35,710 nt of DNA from assembly GCA_044450345.1 (NCBI GenBank), contig JBIOIY010000032.1:1-35710 (forward strand), written 5' to 3'. Positions within the stretch are counted from its first letter, which is position 1. Each line of letters opens with the position of its first letter. Made by a program: the position numbers and the translations under genes. Positions 7,397-17,070 of this stretch are shown piece by piece. The notes beneath the pieces were generated by a model that saw only the letters and a list, made by a program, of their open reading frames with translations, was not told the origin of the DNA and made no database searches. This DNA comes from Thermodesulfovibrionales bacterium (lineage in GTDB: Bacteria; Nitrospirota; Thermodesulfovibrionia; Thermodesulfovibrionales; UBA6898).

Positions 7397-7993
7397 ATGA
7401 AAAGGCATTTTAGCAATCTTGTTTTTATTATCCTGTCCGCTATGCTTCTGGGCCTCTCGGGCTGCGGGTACAACCAGATGCAGGCCAATGAAGAGGCTGT
7501 AAAGGCCGCCTGGGGAGACGTCGAGGCTTCATACCAGAGAAGGAACGACCTAATCCCGAACCTTGTGGAAGTCGTAAAGGGCTATGCGAAACATGAGAAG
7601 GAAACGCTTACGCAGGTAACTGAGGCCAGGGCAAAGGTAGGCTCGATCCAGATGTCCAAAGACATGATCAACAATCCCCAGGCCCTCCAGCAGTTCCAGC
7701 AGGCACAGGGGGCGCTATCGAGCGCTCTTCAGCGGCTGATGGTGGTAGTCGAAAAATATCCGGACCTCAAGGCAAACCAGAATTTTCAGGACCTGCAGCA
7801 CCAGCTCGAAGGGACTGAAAACCGGATTAACGTTGCCCGCGTCCGTTACAACAAAGCGGTAGAGGGCTTCAACGTTTCCATCAGGACGTTTCCTAACAGC
7901 CTGACAAACAGTCTGCTCCTGCACCTTCAGTTAAAAGAACCTTTCAAGGCAGAAGCCGGGGCGGAAAAAGCGCCCAAGGTCCAGTTCCAATAG
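7397..7993 (+). CDS. lemA: LemA family protein
   Basis: [62 protein letters not shown]. Confidence 0.95.
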
Positions 7994-8007
7994 CGATATC
8001 AATGATG

Positions 8008-8147
8008 ACAGGGCAGGGGATGTTTTTTCGCTCATTCTCGTCCCGGAAACTTGATAGTGTCCTTAGGACATACCAAGCTTTCGGGACTCCGAGGCTTTTG
8101 CCGCAGAGCCGGCAAAAGAAACCCCTCAAATTCATCCCCTGACCTGT
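8008..8147 (+). repeat. Structured intergenic element, copy A (related to 13153-13260)
   Basis: Closing stem ACAGGGCAGGGGATG/CATCCCCTGACCTGT; then TTTTCGCTCATTCTCG; hairpin GTCCCGGAA..TTTCGGGAC; CTCCGAGG; hairpin CTTTTGCCG/CGGCAAAAG; AAACCCCTCAAA. Confidence 0.75.
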
Positions 8148-8173
8148 ATACTAGTATAAAAAGAATGACAAAC

Positions 8174-9103
8174 ATGCATAGACAACCGTCAATCGTTAAC
8201 GCCAGTCTCGCCGGATTTTTTTCTGGCGGGATTCGAGTGTTGTTATTGTCGGTTCTTTTTCTGCTCCTCGTGCCGTTGGTCTCCTATGCCCTCGATGTCC
8301 CGAAGCTTCAGGGATACGTGAATGATTACGCGAATATGATTTCGCCTCAGGCGAAGACCCAGCTCGAAAACGAGCTGAAGAATTTCGAGCAGACCGACTC
8401 CACACAGATAGTGATCCTGACTGTGCCTTCCCTCGAGGGGGAAGTGATCGAGGACTTCGACATCAAGGTCGCAGAGGTATGGAAGATAGGGCAAAAGGGA
8501 AAAGACAACGGCGTAATCTTCGTCGTTTCGAAGCAGGACAGAAAGTTGAGAATCGAGGTGGGGCGTGGGCTCGAAGGCAAGTTGACAGACCTTATGGCCG
8601 GAAGGATAATAGACCTCGTGGTAAAACCGAGGTTCAAGAGGGGAGATTATGACGGGGGTTTCATCGCAGGCGTCTCTGCGCTCGTCGATGCAACGCGCGG
8701 AGAGTTCAAGGCGGATGGAAACCATCGGACCAAAAAAAGCGAGTCGTCTTCACGTCTCTTCACTTTCCTAATTTTCATCGGCATTGCAGTCGTCGTCCTC
8801 GGGAGCATATCTCGTCCCCTCGGAGCGGCGGGGGGGGCCTTAGGCTTACCCCTGAGTGTCTTTCTGGCTTCCGTATCCATGGGCCTGGTCGGCTTTTTTA
8901 TCCTTGCCGTCGTGGGTATCGTAGCAGGACTTCTGCTTCCCTCCCTCTTCTCATCGGGCGGACGGGGAGGAGGCTTCGGACCCGGCGGATTTTTTGGGGG
9001 AGGGTTCGGAGGAGGAGGATTCGGCAGCGGCGGCGGAGGCAGCGACTTCGGCGGTGGTGGTGGAGGCGACTTCGGCGGCGGCGGGGCGTCGGGAGACTGG
9101 TAA
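8174..9103 (+). CDS. TPM domain-containing membrane protein (YgcG-like) with Gly-rich tail
   Basis: Signal peptide then VNDYANMIS, QIVILTVPSLEG, WKIGQKGKDNGV, RIEVGRGLEG; ends GGGGDFGGGGASGDW. Start uncertain (8165 or 8174); the ORF-track start at 8051 falls inside the repeat element. Confidence 0.9.
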   Translation: MHRQPSIVNASLAGFFSGGIRVLLLSVLFLLLVPLVSYALDVPKLQGYVNDYANMISPQAKTQLENELKNFEQTDSTQIVILTVPSLEGEVIEDFDIKVAEVWKIGQKGKDNGVIFVVSKQDRKLRIEVGRGLEGKLTDLMAGRIIDLVVKPRFKRGDYDGGFIAGVSALVDATRGEFKADGNHRTKKSESSSRLFTFLIFIGIAVVVLGSISRPLGAAGGALGLPLSVFLASVSMGLVGFFILAVVGIVAGLLLPSLFSSGGRGGGFGPGGFFGGGFGGGGFGSGGGGSDFGGGGGGDFGGGGASGDW

Positions 9104-9738
9104 TGGGACACAGAGCCGAACATTTTTTTACGAAGGAAGAAAAGGAAAGGATAAAGAACACCACCAAAGAGGTGGAGTGCCGCACCTCCGGCGAGATCGT
9201 GGTAATGGTGGTGGACAGAAGCGACGACTATTTTGACGGAGAGGTGATAGGCGGGGTCGTTGCCGGGAGCCTGTGTTCCCTGATCATTACCGCCCTCTTC
9301 TTCAACGCATCGCTCTGGTTTTTCATACCCCTGACATTCATTTTCTTCTTCCCTTTCAGATTTATCTTCAGGAAATATCATCATCTCAGGACCGCCTTCC
9401 TAAGCGCGCGCAGAAGGGAGCACGCGGTGCGTCACCGTGCCATAAGGGCCTTCCATGAAAAGGGGCTGACCAGGACGAAAGGGCATACCGGCGTCCTCTT
9501 CTTCATCTCCCTCCTCGAACGGAAGGTCTGGGTTTTGGCCGACAGGGGGATACACGAAAAGATCGGGCAGGAGACCCTGAACAAATTCGCCGCGCAAGTG
9601 TCGAAGGGCATCGCCGACGGCATCGCCTGCGATGCGCTCTGCGAAGCGATCAAAGAGGCGGGAGACCTGCTCGCCCGTCACTTCCCCTGTAGCCCCGATG
9701 ACACGGACGAACTGCCCGACGGCGTGATCACGGAATAA
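9103..9738 (+). CDS. TPM domain-containing membrane protein, third gene of the lemA cluster
   Basis: ECRTSGEIVV, two TM segments, TGVLFFISLLERKVWVLADRGI, HFP...DELPD; overlaps the previous stop codon. Confidence 0.88.
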   Translation: MGHRAEHFFTKEEKERIKNTTKEVECRTSGEIVVMVVDRSDDYFDGEVIGGVVAGSLCSLIITALFFNASLWFFIPLTFIFFFPFRFIFRKYHHLRTAFLSARRREHAVRHRAIRAFHEKGLTRTKGHTGVLFFISLLERKVWVLADRGIHEKIGQETLNKFAAQVSKGIADGIACDALCEAIKEAGDLLARHFPCSPDDTDELPDGVITE

Positions 9739-9793
9739 TACCAGTCCCCCGAGAGACCGCGCTTACCCCGAGCACCTCTTTTCGCACCGGCCC

Positions 9794-9807
9794 CCTACCC
9801 AGGTAGG
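9794..9807. promoter_or_regulatory. Palindromic candidate operator CCTACC-CA-GGTAGG
   Basis: Perfect 6-2-6 inverted repeat just upstream of a -35-like TTGAAT (9809-9814), ahead of the LuxR-HTH gene. Confidence 0.4.
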
Positions 9808-9909
9808 ATTGAATATCCGTCTCACAAATCGCAAACTATACGTAATAAACGCGGCCGAATGGCAAAACATGTTATGACTGCGAACGCAGCAAAAAAGTGA
9901 GGCGCTAAA

Positions 9910-10737
9910 GTGAACAAAGAAATAAACTTGGGACACATGAAAGTCCGTTTCGGACTGACGCGGAGAGAAGCCGATGTGCTTAAGCGTCTCCTTGATGGCC
10001 TGAAGAACGCAGAGATAGCTGTAAATATGACGATTGCGGAGCAGACCGTGAAGGACCACTTGAGCAGGATATATAAAAAGATGGGAGTAAAGAACAGATT
10101 TGAACTCATGCGTTCACTTATTAAGACATCCGGCAGAAAGGCAAGGTCGGCAACTCCCAAAAATACCCGGCCCAGGCCGGCGGAAAGGGGGCTTAAGGAA
10201 GCCTCTCTCACGGGTGAACTGACCGGCATATACAACCGCAGGGGATTCCTTACACCGGCCGAGCATCAGATGAAGATAGCCGGGAGACAAAATAAGAGAC
10301 TCTATGTGTTATATGCCGAAGTGGATAACCCCGGGATTAGTGCCGATACATTTGAGCCGGAAGGGAGAGATGTTCTGCTGAGAGAGGCAGCAAACATACT
10401 CAAAGACACGTTTCGGGAATCCGATGTCATTGCGCGGGTCGGAGGTGACGAGTTCGTCGTCATTCCTTTGGGTGCTACGGAGGTTGAGAGGGACCGGGTA
10501 GTGGCCAGATTACAAAAGGGCCTGGAGCTTTTCAACTCGAAGAGAGAAGGCGAGCAGGCATTATCGATACGTTATGGCGCCTCTCACAGCGATCCGAAAA
10601 GTCCTTGTTGCATTGATGAACTCCTTCGGCAGGAAGACAGGTCAACGGACAAAGATAATAAGGAAAAAGATGATGAGCGGGAAGACGGCCCCGATCCCCG
10701 CGGTGCTGCCGGAGACAAAGGCGAGTTTACCGTTTAG
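9910..10737 (+). CDS. LuxR-type HTH fused to a degenerate GGDEF domain
   Basis: LTRREADVL..L.DGLKNAEIA....IAEQTVKDHLSRIYKKMGV (GerE/LuxR HTH), then ELTGIYNRRGF...FRESDVIARVGGDEFVVI. Confidence 0.88.
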   Translation: MNKEINLGHMKVRFGLTRREADVLKRLLDGLKNAEIAVNMTIAEQTVKDHLSRIYKKMGVKNRFELMRSLIKTSGRKARSATPKNTRPRPAERGLKEASLTGELTGIYNRRGFLTPAEHQMKIAGRQNKRLYVLYAEVDNPGISADTFEPEGRDVLLREAANILKDTFRESDVIARVGGDEFVVIPLGATEVERDRVVARLQKGLELFNSKREGEQALSIRYGASHSDPKSPCCIDELLRQEDRSTDKDNKEKDDEREDGPDPRGAAGDKGEFTV

Positions 10738-10862
10738 TTTGAGATCCATCGTCTTCTCCTTTAGCTTCTTGTATCAGACTTTAAAGCATACCCACTTCTG
10801 TTACCTTGGTACGATTACATCGCCTCCCCGGTTGTCAGGAAACTTTTATTGACAGTTCCAAG

Positions 10863-11318
10863 CTATCGTGTCCATGTCGTTGTCCCACCGATGAGCGATA
10901 TGCCGATGAAGCCCCTCACATTTAATTGATTAGGTGAACCGAGTGTCAGCTTGCCGCTGTATGTCTTGCCGTTGTCCGAGTTGTATATTCTCCCGTTCTT
11001 CCACGAGTTATCACCGGCAAACACGAAGTCAAGAAGAATGGGTAGCCCGACAAGAGGAGTTCTTCTCAGTTCCGGGTCCGGGTTGTTATAATCAAGCATC
11101 GGCGTGTTCGGGATCCCTTCTTTTGAACCAGCAGGATAAGTCGGTTCCTTCAACCAAACAATTTTGCCGCAGTACTTTATGCCGCATTTATAGATTCCTA
11201 TCTTTGCGTCTCTCTCCTCCGTGTTCCACACCCCAAGAATATCGTATGGGCCCGCAGCATAGGCAGATGCCGTGGCCAGTATTATGCTCGTGAAAACTAT
11301 AAGCATGCATCGCCTCAT
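10863..11318 (-). CDS. Secreted DUF2147-family protein
   Basis: Signal peptide, GVWNTE, YCGKIVWL, D.NNPDPELR, GRIYNSDNGKTYS, LNVRGFIGISLIG.T.TWTR. Confidence 0.9.
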   Translation of the reverse strand: MRRCMLIVFTSIILATASAYAAGPYDILGVWNTEERDAKIGIYKCGIKYCGKIVWLKEPTYPAGSKEGIPNTPMLDYNNPDPELRRTPLVGLPILLDFVFAGDNSWKNGRIYNSDNGKTYSGKLTLGSPNQLNVRGFIGISLIGGTTTWTR

Positions 11319-11764
11319 ATCGTCTCAGCTTACAGGTGTCCGTCCCGCATTACAAAATATAATCTTCACTCTGCCAAAGTATATCACATGTACAAATTTT
11401 GGGATGGACTTGATGTTGGCCGCTATCGGCACGCCAGCTCTCATGTTACGCCCTGTACTCTTCCGGCAAAAAGACATGAGGTCCTTTTTTTTGAGGCAAA
11501 ACAGATTTTTCGACTGCTTCCTGTACCTCACAGCGGAGCCTTTCCCACATTTACTGTGGGTCACCTAAGAAAATAGTCAGTCTGCCAACTTTACTGCAAA
11601 TTGCGAATATTCGCTTTTAGTCCTTATTATCAGCAATTATAAAAATTGTAACGGACGCTTGTTTTGTTTCTTCCATCGTTTTTCGCGATGTGATATATTT
11701 AGTTCAGGTGGTCACCCAACTGGAAGTTCATATAATCATTGTCCACTAGCCATGGAGATATAAA

Positions 11765-12184
11765 ATGTCTATTGAATATGACATCATAATGGACAAAAAA
11801 TTAGTACTGGCAAAAGGCTGCAATGTGATTTCTGGAATTACTGTAATGGAGCATCTTGCCGCCTTGGCCATGGACTATAGGTATAAAGCGCCGATGAAAA
11901 AGCTCGTCGATTACAGAACTATTGATAGCATCAGAATTTCTCCGAAAGAAGCATATTCAATCGCCCGGATAAAGGTAAGACTTGCCAGTACATTTACCGG
12001 CGAGAGATGCGCTTTTGTGTCGCCGAAGGATGATTCATATAGCTCCTCACGAGTGCATCAGGCACTTGTTGATGGCATTGGCCTCAACACGGAAGTTTTC
12101 AGGCGCATCGAGGACGCTCTGGAATGGCTTGATGTTACTTTAGACAAGAACCATGAACAATGGCTACTCAAGCGTTGCACGTGA
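11765..12184 (+). CDS. Hypothetical protein, SpoIIAA-like (STAS/SEC14-like) fold
   Basis: 139 aa with SD GGAG; pattern LVDYR...RCAFVS...VFRRIEDALEWL typical of SpoIIAA-like small proteins. Confidence 0.65.
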   Translation: MSIEYDIIMDKKLVLAKGCNVISGITVMEHLAALAMDYRYKAPMKKLVDYRTIDSIRISPKEAYSIARIKVRLASTFTGERCAFVSPKDDSYSSSRVHQALVDGIGLNTEVFRRIEDALEWLDVTLDKNHEQWLLKRCT

Positions 12185-12549
12185 TGCCGAGAACGTCTTC
12201 GGGTTAACGGGCAAATTTTTTGAGCGGCGCACGTGAGCTCAATCGTTGCTTTCTTTTGAAAATCTTCACTGTTGCAGATTTATGAACCACGATTGCTTGT
12301 CGGTGAAAGTGTCATCGCTCGCTGAGAATACTGGAGCACTCTCTTTTGAGGTCGGTATCGATGGAGGTTTCTCCCGCCATTCCAAACAGGCGAAAGTGGA
12401 CTCCATAATCCTCTCGACGTAAGATTATATATCGGACTCCGGAGGGAGCCATGGGGCGAATTCAACAGTCATAAAAAACGAGGCTGGTGTTTAGTTCTGT
12501 GAGTACCCCGCGGGCACTATCTGTAGGGTCAATTAGTTGCAGCTACAAA

Positions 12550-13140
12550 TTATGCGGAATTAGCGGGAGTGCACCTGATCACACGACGGTCCGTGACGAT
12601 CATGTCGGCCCTGATATCATGAGGTTCAGCGGGGACCGATTCAACTATCTGTTCTTCATATGCCAGGGCGACGACCGGGACATGATGCGTCAGCGATGAA
12701 AGAAGTCTGTCGTAGTATCCTCCGCCATAACCGATCCTGTTGCCTTCGGCATCGAAACCGGCACCGGGGACTATCGCCGCATCGACGTTGTAAATATCGA
12801 CCATTCTTTCTTCGGTAAGTACGGCGGGCTCCGGGATGTTCATATACCCTGCGGTCAATTCTTCAATGCCCTTCACTTCGTAAAGAAGCAAGACATGCCT
12901 TTCCCTGTCCACTTTAGGGAGCACGATGCGCTTGCCATTAATGAGTAGTTGTGCAATTGCATCCAGGGTATTCACCTCGGACCTGAAAGAGGCGAAAAAG
13001 AAGAGCACGTTCGCCTTCTTGATCTCATCGAGTGACATCAGGCGTTCGTGTATCACCCTGTCCTTCGCCTTCCTCACCCCAGAGGGGATCGCATCTCTCT
13101 TTTTCAGAAGTTCCCTTCTGAGCAAACTTTTATCGATCAT
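12550..13140 (-). CDS. ygfA: 5-formyltetrahydrofolate cyclo-ligase
   Basis: K..LRRELLKKR, SEVNT, IPEP, VPGAGFD..GNRIGYGGGYYDRLL, EPHDIRADMIVT. Confidence 0.95.
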   Translation of the reverse strand: MIDKSLLRRELLKKRDAIPSGVRKAKDRVIHERLMSLDEIKKANVLFFFASFRSEVNTLDAIAQLLINGKRIVLPKVDRERHVLLLYEVKGIEELTAGYMNIPEPAVLTEERMVDIYNVDAAIVPGAGFDAEGNRIGYGGGYYDRLLSSLTHHVPVVALAYEEQIVESVPAEPHDIRADMIVTDRRVIRCTPANSA

Positions 13141-13152
13141 CTTGTTTTCCGA

Positions 13153-13260
13153 AAGCAGGACGCCGCGTTTGAGCGGATTCTTTTATCCCGATATTTATCG
13201 GGATAAAAGCCCTCGGAGGTCGATACGACCGAGAATGAGCGAAAATGCAGCGTCCTGCTT
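13153..13260 (-). repeat. Structured intergenic element, copy B (related to 8008-8147)
   Basis: Minus strand: closing stem AAGCAGGACGCTGC/GCGGCGTCCTGCTT; TTTTCGCTCATTCTCG; hairpin GTCG-TAT-CGAC; CTCCGAGG; hairpin CTTTTATCCCGAT/ATCGGGATAAAAG; AATCCGCTCAAA. Confidence 0.75.
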
Positions 13261-13277
13261 GCGTCAGTGAATAGCCA

Positions 13278-14057
13278 TCATCCATTCAGTATTTGCTCGA
13301 TCGCCGATTTGATCTTCCTAATTTCGTCGACGGTGGCGGGAGAATGCATGAAAGGAGAGGCACCCTGAATGTCGGCCTCCATCACGGAATCGCTTAAACT
13401 GATATGTCCGATGAGACCCACATCGCCTATACCGCCTTTGATGAATTCCACATCCTTACCGCCCCTGACCTTATTGGCAACGACAAACACGTTTTTTACC
13501 CCCAGCTCTTTCGCCATCTTCTTGACAACGCCGGCGGTCTGGATAGACCTCTGTCCCGGTTCGACCACAACGATGAAGGCGTCGACGGCCCCTGCGGTCC
13601 CCCGCGTAAGGTGTTCAATACCGGCCTCCATATCGACTATCACCACTTCGTCCCTTTCGACGACAAGGTGTTTGAGCAGCCTTTTGAGGAAGACACTTTC
13701 CGGGCAGTAGCATCCCGACGCGGCGGCCTTTGTCTTCCCCATAACAAGCAGGGTCACTCCGTTCACCTTAAAGCCGAACCCCTCTGGAAGGTCGTCCACC
13801 TTGGGATTAAGTTTGAAAATGCCCCCCATGTTGCCGGGCTTTGAGCCTGTTCGTTCTTCTATCAACTCGCCGAGTTCTGCAATCGGCCTTATCTTTGCCG
13901 CATCTTCTCTGGATACGCCGAGTGCGGAGGCCAGGTTTGCGTCAGGATCGGCATCGACCGCGATGACCTTCTTTCCCTCCGAGGCAAAAAGAAAACTCAA
14001 TATGGCGGAAAGCGTAGTCTTGCCTACTCCACCTTTTCCTGTCACTGCGATTTTCAT
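13278..14057 (-). CDS. cooC: CooC/AcsF-type nickel-insertion ATPase (CO dehydrogenase maturation)
   Basis: Deviant Walker A GKGGVGKT, DADPDANL, GCYCP (CxC metal site), DMEAGIEHLTRGT. Confidence 0.9.
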   Translation of the reverse strand: MKIAVTGKGGVGKTTLSAILSFLFASEGKKVIAVDADPDANLASALGVSREDAAKIRPIAELGELIEERTGSKPGNMGGIFKLNPKVDDLPEGFGFKVNGVTLLVMGKTKAAASGCYCPESVFLKRLLKHLVVERDEVVIVDMEAGIEHLTRGTAGAVDAFIVVVEPGQRSIQTAGVVKKMAKELGVKNVFVVANKVRGGKDVEFIKGGIGDVGLIGHISLSDSVMEADIQGASPFMHSPATVDEIRKIKSAIEQILNG

Positions 14058-15809: not shown

Positions 15810-15831
15810 AAATAGGGACACATCCCATTTT

Positions 15832-16503
15832 TCAGCATGATTCCCTTCGTGGCCTTCCCTTCGGTCGCTGCAGAAGCTTTCTTTCAAGTTTATTCTCCAT
15901 TTCAATTACAAACCCCTCATTGCCGAAAGGTCTTCCAGTTTTTGTAGCATAGCGCAATCGCTCAATTTCTTTCTTGGGTATATCGGATCGTAGTAGAAGA
16001 ACATAGTCCCGTCGTCTGTCATTGGCGAAAAGGTCATCTCCGAGGACGGCATCCTCGCTTCCTTTGACATGTGCGAGGGCACTTGAATAGGGATAGTCTT
16101 CTGCTTTCTCTACCATCCCTACTCGTACTGGATTTTGCTCGATATATCTGGCCACTGCCCACAAGTACTTCTCGTGATCCACAATGCACGAATGATAACG
16201 ACTTTCCCACAGTCTTCCAGTCCTCCCGTAGGTCCTGTTTATATACTGCGTATAGCAGAGAGTAAGACCCTGCATCATCTTAAACAGGGACTCTTCCGAC
16301 CCGGGTTTCGTCAGAAGGTGGACATGATTGGTCATCAGGCAGTACGCCATTATAGGAGAAGTCCACTTCGCAGAATATTTCTTAAGCAGTGAGAGATACA
16401 GACTTCGGTCATCTTTTTTGAAAAAGACTCCCTCCCGATTGTTTCCCCTTTGAAGTACGTGGTGCGGAAATCCCGCCGCCACCACTCGTCCAATCCTCGG
16501 CAT
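15832..16503 (-). CDS. Y1 HUH transposase, REP-associated tyrosine transposase (RAYT)-like
   Basis: MPR..R......HHVLQRGNNRE, YCLMTNHVHLL (HUH), GRLWESRYHS, YIEQNPVRVG...DYPYSS. Confidence 0.92.
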   Translation of the reverse strand: MPRIGRVVAAGFPHHVLQRGNNREGVFFKKDDRSLYLSLLKKYSAKWTSPIMAYCLMTNHVHLLTKPGSEESLFKMMQGLTLCYTQYINRTYGRTGRLWESRYHSCIVDHEKYLWAVARYIEQNPVRVGMVEKAEDYPYSSALAHVKGSEDAVLGDDLFANDRRRDYVLLLRSDIPKKEIERLRYATKTGRPFGNEGFVIEMENKLERKLLQRPKGRPRRESC

Positions 16504-16508
16504 AAGTG

Positions 16509-16537
16509 ATTCTATCGATTATGGCCCTGTATGTCAA
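16509..16537 (-). promoter_or_regulatory. Sigma70 promoter for the transposase, leaderless arrangement
   Basis: Minus strand TTGACA-17 nt-TAGAAT-5 nt-ATG, no SD. Confidence 0.7.
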
Positions 16538-17070
16538 GAAATGGGATGTGTCCCTATTTTATTTATAATTCCATAGTGTGTTCGAATTCTGCCTTAGTCG
16601 TTTTGATATATCCCTGGATACCCATCTCGTTTCATACTGCCTGCGCTTGAGTGGACGAAACACTTTTTCCTGATTCTTGCTACATAGGAGAGCCATAGGG
16701 AGGACTAAGGCAGGCGTTTTCGCCGGAAGACATCGAGAGGACAGAGAGCCGTCCAGTTCAATTGCACTACCTGACAAGTTCCGTCCGCAATACTTCGAAA
16801 AAAGGGATGTGTGCAGGTCAGACAATCTTTTCATTTTCTTCCTGAACTCGACACCAGGGCTATTCCCTTAGAGTATGTGGAGTACTCTTCGAACTCACTG
16901 TTTTTTTTAATCAATAGTTCTCTTCATCCTCTTGTGTATTTGTGCTATATTCTATCGTAAATGGCAGATCCGAATTTATCATGATCTCTGTTGGTGATAA
17001 ACGAGAAATAGAAATGCAAATGGTCCCATTAATAATCATCCTAGCAGTGGCCGCTATGATAAGGGAATTT

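Follow-up and report, generated by a model that had tools for sequence, protein, structure and literature searches.

A Y-shaped repeat of Thermodesulfovibrionales, probably the eroded core of an IS1380-type miniature transposable element that may fold as single-stranded DNA

The window considered here, a stretch of 35,710 nucleotides (nt) from a Thermodesulfovibrionales bacterium of the phylum Nitrospirota (GenBank assembly GCA_044450345.1, contig JBIOIY010000032.1, positions 1 to 35,710), carries two copies of a Y-shaped element, each located between two genes of the same direction: copy 1 between lemA and the gene for a TPM-domain protein, and copy 2 between the genes for a CooC-like ATPase and a 5-formyltetrahydrofolate cyclo-ligase. 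A previous sequence-only reading of the window had reported both elements and their positions, a run of 16 letters identical between them, and the co-directional flanking genes, to which the strand read at that time (referred to below as the first-read strand) is sense. All of this was borne out, the shared run being found as TTTTCGCTCATTCTCG at 8025 (+) and 13245 (-). The features of the two loci are as follows.

8008..8147, presumed folded strand -: copy 1, a Y-shaped element with an outer stem of about 20 base pairs (bp), a three-way junction and two hairpins
8029..8040 (-): conserved junction strand of copy 1, CGCTCATTCTCG on the + strand, with conservation across the 34 copies of the genome
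8087..8094 (-): conserved junction strand of copy 1, CTCCGAGG on the + strand
8119..8127 (-): third junction strand of copy 1, reading AAACCCCTC and departing once from the family consensus
13153..13260, presumed folded strand +: copy 2, with an 18-bp outer stem, the same junction and two shorter hairpins
13171-13179, 13211-13218 and 13230-13241 (+): junction strands of copy 2
13267..13273 (-): TATTCAC, 32 nt before the core of copy 2, with a whole-repeat score of 10/18
7397..7993 (+): lemA, Pfam PF04011, upstream of copy 1
8165..9103 (+): TPM-domain gene, Pfam PF04536, downstream of copy 1, start codon uncertain
13278..14057 (-): gene for a CooC-like ATPase, neighbour of copy 2; Pfam gives CbiA/ParA-type families, the name cooC being a label of the sequence-only reading and not derived from Pfam
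12550..13140 (-): ygfA, 5-formyltetrahydrofolate cyclo-ligase, Pfam PF01812, neighbour of copy 2

The outer stem of the element, mostly 18-22 bp long, closes a three-way junction made of three short and nearly invariant strands, from which two inner hairpins of free length extend. The order of parts proposed previously holds as described, apart from an extra G in copy 2 between CTCCGAGG and CTTTT and from the third junction strand of copy 1, which is AAACCCCTC at 8119-8127. The sixth place of this strand is G in 33 of the 34 copies of the genome, copy 1 being the exception, and this departure breaks a core pair and likely reflects decay. Copy 1 scores 63.6 bits with the covariance model introduced below, and the folds of both copies on either strand reach a z of about -7 against dinucleotide shuffles, with RNA and DNA parameters alike. 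No promoter- or terminator-like site was found at copy 1 or copy 2, and a leader peptide was rejected, as reading frames across the copies are not alike and most of them are closed. The TPM leader region also contains a small imperfect hairpin (window 8199-8232), possibly the remnant of another repeat.

The two copies noticed previously belong to a much larger repeat family. This genome (G000, 3.19 Mb; G004, G059, G068, G079 and G147 denote other genomes of comparison) holds 34 copies by profile search and 33 by a covariance model built from 32 copies. Of 151 genomes of the order, 49 contain the exact junction pattern, at 0-72 copies per genome over the whole set and with hairpins that are often genome-specific; the covariance model has matches in 13 of 121 genomes sampled from the phylum, and 10 of these 13 belong to the same order. 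A scan of named genomes returned at least 128 matching stretches; the 80 listed are mostly from Nitrospirota (Thermodesulfovibrionales), with some from Desulfobacterota, Planctomycetota, Latescibacterota, Gemmatimonadota and Patescibacteria. In G000 the neighbours are unrelated housekeeping genes, with copies lying within operons such as pheS-pheT. Convergent gaps are enriched (9/154 against 4/302 divergent gaps, among gaps of at least 100 bp), and the distance from the upstream stop codon has a median of 18 nt (n=80).

Rfam 15 covariance models gave no match at either window copy up to E=5 and none at the element in eight other loci up to E=2, and no Rfam ribozyme match indicative of a self-cleaving ribozyme was obtained at the elements searched. 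Viral contigs contained no exact match; a looser pattern gave at least 120 stretches in them, of which 80 were tested with the covariance model and none matched. BLAST searches of plasmids and phages were without match to the element. No description of it was found in the literature, subscription journals and IS catalogues lying outside the search and supplements being read for PMC2864571 only.

Two peculiarities of arrangement were observed within the family. Five of the 34 G000 copies (C2:42059, C9:54679, C1:119772, C17:27959 and C23:23781) carry, at one and the same junction position, an inserted palindromic mini-hairpin of about 20 nt; the insert at C17:27959 is missing from the orthologous G004 copy. 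Inverted element pairs, 60-200 nt apart and always in the same relative orientation, occur in G000 (C10:25275-25594 and C56:7155-7437) and in G004 (C9:36512-36790 and C10:1123072-1123348), the C10 pair being orthologous between the two genomes.

Selection on the structure of the core, which the sequence-only reading had proposed, is supported by the pattern of sequence change. When 32 copies were aligned, 95.8% of cells proved to be paired; shuffles gave 72.0% and slid controls 36-51%. Of 29 pairs, 21 have changed on both sides. The eight predicted junction pairs are invariant in this alignment, and RNAalifold favours another register at the junction. Four copies that are orthologous between G000 and G004 have 72 arm pairs in all; 16 of these differ between the two genomes, nine of them by a double change from one Watson-Crick pair to another.

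The question of which strand folds was approached through wobble pairs, folding energies and loops. Read on the first-read strand, the outer stems of 136 distinct copies contain 228 A.C against 62 G.T juxtapositions (60:12 in this genome, 168:50 elsewhere), an excess by which wobbles favour the reverse strand. The earlier proposal that G-U pairs favour the sense strand was not confirmed; the outer stems of both window copies contain, on the first-read strand, one G.T and one A.C in all. There is no wobble bias in the first four pairs of hairpin 1 (14:14). The reverse strand folds better in 122 (DNA parameters) and 124 (RNA parameters) of the 136 copies, and its junction is rich in purines, the outer stem being topped by a tandem G.A pair, as read off the alignment. 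From these sequence patterns we infer that the folded strand is the reverse of the first-read one.

Loop types were counted in 218 hairpin-1 sequences. Triloops are GNA in 49 of 90 cases on the reverse strand and in none on the first-read strand; the minimal hairpins are C-GNA-G in 35 of 39, with all four letters at N and inside GCGNAGC on the reverse strand; and 59 tetraloops comprise nine GNYA, six GNRA and no UUCG. The available text of PMC13037366 describes GCGNAGC as an exceptionally stable DNA mini-hairpin whose RNA forms are far less stable, which forms with GNA loops only, and which is present at phage G4 and ssiA priming sites. The portion of PMC5737381 consulted warns how difficult it is to distinguish motifs of single-stranded DNA (ssDNA) from RNA motifs on the basis of sequence. 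The loop types favour an ssDNA fold over an RNA fold, short of proof.

In tandem gaps the folded strand is antisense to the flanking genes in 15 of 21 cases in G000, where strands were checked by Pfam, and in 66 of 92 cases outside it, a count from related genomes and from crude gene calls in which orientation was taken from the longest reading frames, so that some calls are wrong. The folded strand follows the inferred leading replication strand in 21-22 of 34 copies, a bias not above that of genes (59%), and nine copies on one G004 contig have mixed strands.

Orthologous sites are often empty, partly deleted or refilled by other repeats. The element is missing from the cooC-ygfA gap in 13 of 13 relatives, and among 14 relatives the lemA-TPM gap contains this element family in one (L015) and a different hairpin repeat in four. 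Of the 21 G004 copies, 19 could be aligned to G000, where four are present, six are remnants (judged by eye) and nine are absent; conversely, seven G000 copies checked in G004 comprise two present, one remnant, three absent and one unalignable. Three close-strain contigs (X1, X3 and X7; single contigs, depth 4-10) provide a finer view. X3 is without 8022-8162 but has kept one arm, and in X7 positions 13143-13261 are replaced by six other letters, the stem-bounded unit being absent almost exactly and an end-repeat remnant kept. Other fillers, of 201-254 letters, occur in the window's element gaps in X1, X3 and X7. Copy 2 of X1 shows four changes: two create a G.T on the folded strand, a third restores a pair and the last disrupts a core pair. 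Many of the 'empty' sites are clearly losses.

The lemA-TPM gap was found to be eventful in relatives, the lemA stop being an insertion hot spot. In L002, L003, L004 and L007 the gap carries another branched repeat family, which is in frame within the TPM N-terminus and extends the region before the signal peptide; this family has similar end words and a CTCG-hairpin-CTCAGACA module. Several further hairpin repeat types occupy the gap in L006, L009, L010, L012 and L013, and L015 has the family of the present element there, with a frame open into TPM. At the other locus, ygfA (window 12550-13140) is 69% identical to its G004 orthologue and the adjacent CooC-like protein 96%, a contrast in identity that suggests replacement of ygfA in one lineage.

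Evidence on how the element spreads came from its flanks. Locus L213 of G059 holds a 1650-bp insertion sequence (IS) that is bounded by 18-bp end repeats and flanked by CTAG at either end. Its transposase (P0001) scores 410.5 bits against NF033539 of NCBIfam (cut-off 180), which places it in the IS1380 family. When an end was called at a match of at least 14/18 to the ends of this IS, an IS1380-type end was found to adjoin 82 of 324 copies, 31 of them on both sides, with none in reversed-sequence controls. An exact 4-bp target duplication is present in 13 of the 31 two-ended copies, two of which look like near-duplicates (shuffled mean 4.8; none of 5000 shuffles reached 13), and one within a single mismatch in 21 of 31, the target being YTAR. 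Directly at the stem ends duplication is at chance level; it is seen only outside the IS-type ends. Complete copies are transposase-free and have a median length of 193 bp (range 158-214 bp). Three genomes were chosen for their near-identical hairpins, with 6/6, 8/9 and 7/17 copies fetched; an end is kept there in 5/6, 6/7 and 5/6 of the copies scored. Similarity among these copies is 73-94% for ends and arms; for spacers it is 87-92% in G059 and, among four G147/G079 comparisons, 35-47% in three and 77% in the other. The exact word TATTCAC stands at an offset of 30-42 in 18 of 185 copies, compared with 0.08 per position farther away, and the TATTCAC near copy 2, at a distance where the word is enriched, is likely what remains of an IS1380-type end repeat, namely of its inner half. 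A pattern search of G000 for pairs of end repeats without a core gave none.

End repeats and target duplication point to a DDE transposase of the IS1380 family and not to an HUH enzyme. The sequence-only reading had offered, as one option, a non-autonomous ssDNA-hairpin element mobilised by an HUH enzyme; its mobile and non-autonomous character stands and folding as ssDNA is favoured, whereas no HUH gene recurs in 241 element loci. At the level of the family, end repeats, target duplication, an IS1380 partner, short length, lack of a transposase, and empty and filled sites were all found, as in miniature inverted-repeat transposable elements (MITEs).

It is therefore probable, and held here with moderate confidence, that the two elements of the window are the eroded core of an IS1380-type MITE of about 190 bp, folding as ssDNA on the strand opposite to the first-read one. 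Complete copies in relatives carry the 18-bp ends of an IS1380 element and the 4-bp YTAR duplication, and an IS1380-family transposase would move the unit in trans. As YTAR contains TAA or TAG, this target would explain the copies found just after stop codons. Ends and spacers would subsequently decay or drop out, while the stem-bounded core would keep pairing by compensatory change, a history read back from the pattern of extant copies. Selection would act on a DNA fold that contains GCGNAGC mini-hairpins and tandem G.A pairs. By analogy, the invariant junction could tentatively be seen as a putative ssDNA protein-binding site, most likely a priming or replication-restart signal of the G4 origin or ssiA kind; this is the least certain step, and a doubtful one. 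Such a signal would aid copying of the element, and the host might conceivably keep it.

Several observations weigh against this explanation. Ends are rare in G000 (4/35), G004 (1/21) and G068 (0/28), and the window copies themselves fall below the end threshold, copy 1 with scores of 9/18 and 8/18 and copy 2 with 10/18 and 9/18. With most copies lacking a recognisable end, erosion is only inferred and another route of spread is possible. No IS1380 transposase match (PF13701) was obtained in G000, whose assembly is 91% complete, and a transposase of the L213 type is whole in one and partial in two of 151 genomes. The L213 IS itself is without the core, YTAR-preceded IS1380-type ends surround other, unrelated hairpin cores at C21 and C25 of G000, and copies in other phyla seem, judged by eye, to sit in other shells; together these make the core a cargo and not a piece of the IS. 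As to the fold, the energy gap between strands is 7.0 kcal/mol with RNA and 2.9 with DNA parameters, and orientation tracks transcription (66:26) more than replication, in agreement with an effect at the level of RNA. The invariance seen at the junction is circular in part, most alignment rows having been found with the junction pattern, and p-values are overstated, the genomes being kin. No strand bias (3:3) was seen among the six changes in orthologous arms that affect one side only. A disrupted junction is tolerated, as seen in the five of 34 copies with a mini-hairpin insert and in the X1 allele with its broken core pair, and selection in place is thus not strict.

Concerning the shells, the core appears to lie inside other outer inverted repeats at L058, L062, L104, L072 and L219, and at L219 it stands directly before an IS1380-family transposase match.

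The other explanations differ from the favoured one either in the molecule that folds or in the means of spread. The same MITE core could be selected as an RNA of the reverse strand, namely an antisense or small RNA, a nuclease substrate or, in the extreme case, a self-cleaving ribozyme, whose activity, if selected against in operons, would give the antisense bias. Its purine-rich invariant junction and freely covarying stems of variable length would suit such an RNA, the wobble excess fits G-U as well as G.T, and both the larger energy gap with RNA parameters and the link of orientation to transcription rather than replication speak for it. Against these stand GNA triloops with all four letters at N, GNYA loops as frequent as GNRA and the lack of UUCG, as well as the 26 of 92 tandem gaps in which the folded strand is sense and so not excluded from messages, the lack of an Rfam family and the lack of a promoter- or terminator-like site at either copy, so that an RNA is considered unlikely. 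Another option of the sequence-only reading had been that the element acts in cis on the flanking mRNAs, in sense orientation, as a motif for their processing or stability. The first-read strand is indeed sense in 66 of 92 tandem gaps and close after stop codons, strong hairpins on both strands make a passive barrier to 3'-exonucleases plausible, and repeats of the ERIC type influence mRNA decay (PMC3184786, in the part available). This option is nevertheless disfavoured, to the point of being very improbable, since wobbles and loops select the other strand, which is antisense in those same 66 gaps, the neighbours are unrelated housekeeping genes without a common function, and the sites in close relatives and strains turn out empty or filled again, the element being absent from all 13 cooC-ygfA loci.

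With respect to the means of spread, the core might be an independent REP-like ssDNA unit moved by an HUH enzyme (RAYT-type) or another enzyme and located at times inside IS1380 or other MITE shells. This would agree with the ssDNA-type loops, the constant stem length (about 18-22 bp), the lack of ends in all 28 G068 copies, the other shells in other phyla (by eye) and the X7 allele, in which the stem-bounded unit is missing almost exactly; that allele, however, keeps an end-repeat remnant and may be a deletion product. Neither a conserved end tag (GTAG, CGTC) nor a duplication was found at the stem ends of 136 copies. No HUH, IS1380 or RAYT gene was found in 241 element loci with the Y1 protein of the window and an IS200-like protein as queries or by all-against-all clustering of neighbouring reading frames, which gave housekeeping families only. 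PF01797 occurs in 105 of 151 genomes irrespective of the element, and the Y1 gene of the window has 21-bp end repeats of its own. A REP-like unit is accordingly judged quite improbable, more so than a reverse-strand RNA. Least probable of all, with hardly any weight given to it, is a functionless selfish MITE whose arm complementarity arises from template switching or recombination between copies. High turnover, partial deletions, replacement of one subtype by another at one site and the persistence of copies with a disrupted junction are in keeping with it, but template switching would yield neither a wobble excess on one strand nor GNA loops, nor would it yield a junction common to several phyla with rewritten arms.

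The Y1 gene of the window (15832-16503, -) was considered as a mobiliser and rejected: it is bounded by its own perfect 21-bp terminal repeats and scores 73.4 against a RAYT cut-off of 80. This HUH transposase gene and its repeats form a TIRYT-like element (window 15810-16559) unrelated to the Y-shaped one; TIRYT elements likewise have terminal end repeats, as described in the available text of PMC6006769.

Among known systems, the element works like the Correia, ERIC, Nezha or bcr1 repeats, the family having the properties of MITEs and the window copies being without ends. Bacterial MITEs (Correia/NEMIS, ERIC, RUP, Nezha and Chunjie), as presented in the accessible portion of the review PMC3184786, are similarly shorter than about 200 bp and transposase-free, share their ends with an IS, show target duplication, a long fold and both empty and filled sites, and lie near gene 3' ends. 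The present element is distinguished from those described there by its IS1380-type ends, a term missing from the text available, which are mostly lost, and by a strand-specific three-way junction with an invariant centre that surpasses its vehicle in conservation and occurs in several phyla. The bcr1 repeat of the Bacillus cereus group, compared by description in the same portion of PMC3184786, is also branched (about 155 bp), with compensatory changes, variable positions and a short flanking duplication; it is described as a transcribed cruciform RNA with 5-bp repeats, whereas the element has a three-way junction, DNA-type loops and a 4-bp YTAR duplication.

The element is neither a REP, an attC site nor an Rfam family. 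From what could be consulted of PMC3733652 and PMC6006769, REP, BIME and REPIN sequences, the GTAG/CGTC-tagged repeats of RAYTs, resemble it in their intergenic position, after stop codons and in convergent gaps, in their inverted pairs and in ssDNA-type folding; in contrast to these hairpins of 20-40 bp with a tag, the element is 110-190 bp long, branched and tagless, with variable arms and no flanking RAYT. In attC sites and the attC-like DUF1874 and Rhodopirellula-1 motifs, structure is likewise kept while sequence is little conserved (PMC5737381 and PMC2864571, as far as available), and Rhodopirellula-1 rows in PMC2864571 contain the same GCTCGCTTCGCTC hairpin word, but with attC-like ends.

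The ends of attC sites follow the consensus RYYYAAC...GTTRRRY. Ends of this type were not found in the flank consensus of 136 copies; unlike attC, the element has no AAC...GTT ends, lies in housekeeping operons (pheS-pheT) and apparently not in cassette arrays, and is conserved at its centre and not at its termini. XerC-like matches were obtained in five of 241 element loci, where the neighbours are core genes. With the mini-hairpins of phage G4 and ssiA priming sites, as given in the same excerpt of PMC13037366, the element has in common that GCGNAGC and GNNA loops occur on a single strand; the likeness is limited to the motif, and the element differs from those sites in having no match in phage or plasmid collections.

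As a MITE, the element would be of a familiar kind, the oddity being that the cargo exceeds its vehicle in conservation. Several phyla have in common a junction of about 28 nt while the arms are rewritten, with selection on one strand and loops of the DNA type, and an ssDNA motif more complex than a hairpin is rare, according to the text of PMC5737381 at hand. It may be, as a tentative suggestion that is on balance doubtful, that the core represents an undescribed class of functional ssDNA with a putative protein-binding junction, distributed over several phyla, carried as cargo by unrelated MITEs and still selected in the host chromosome after their ends are lost. If proven, this would add a class of folded-DNA signal and a case on which covariation screens could be tested for their ability to distinguish RNA from ssDNA motifs, with the warning that 'new RNA' candidates of such a kind can be read on the wrong strand.

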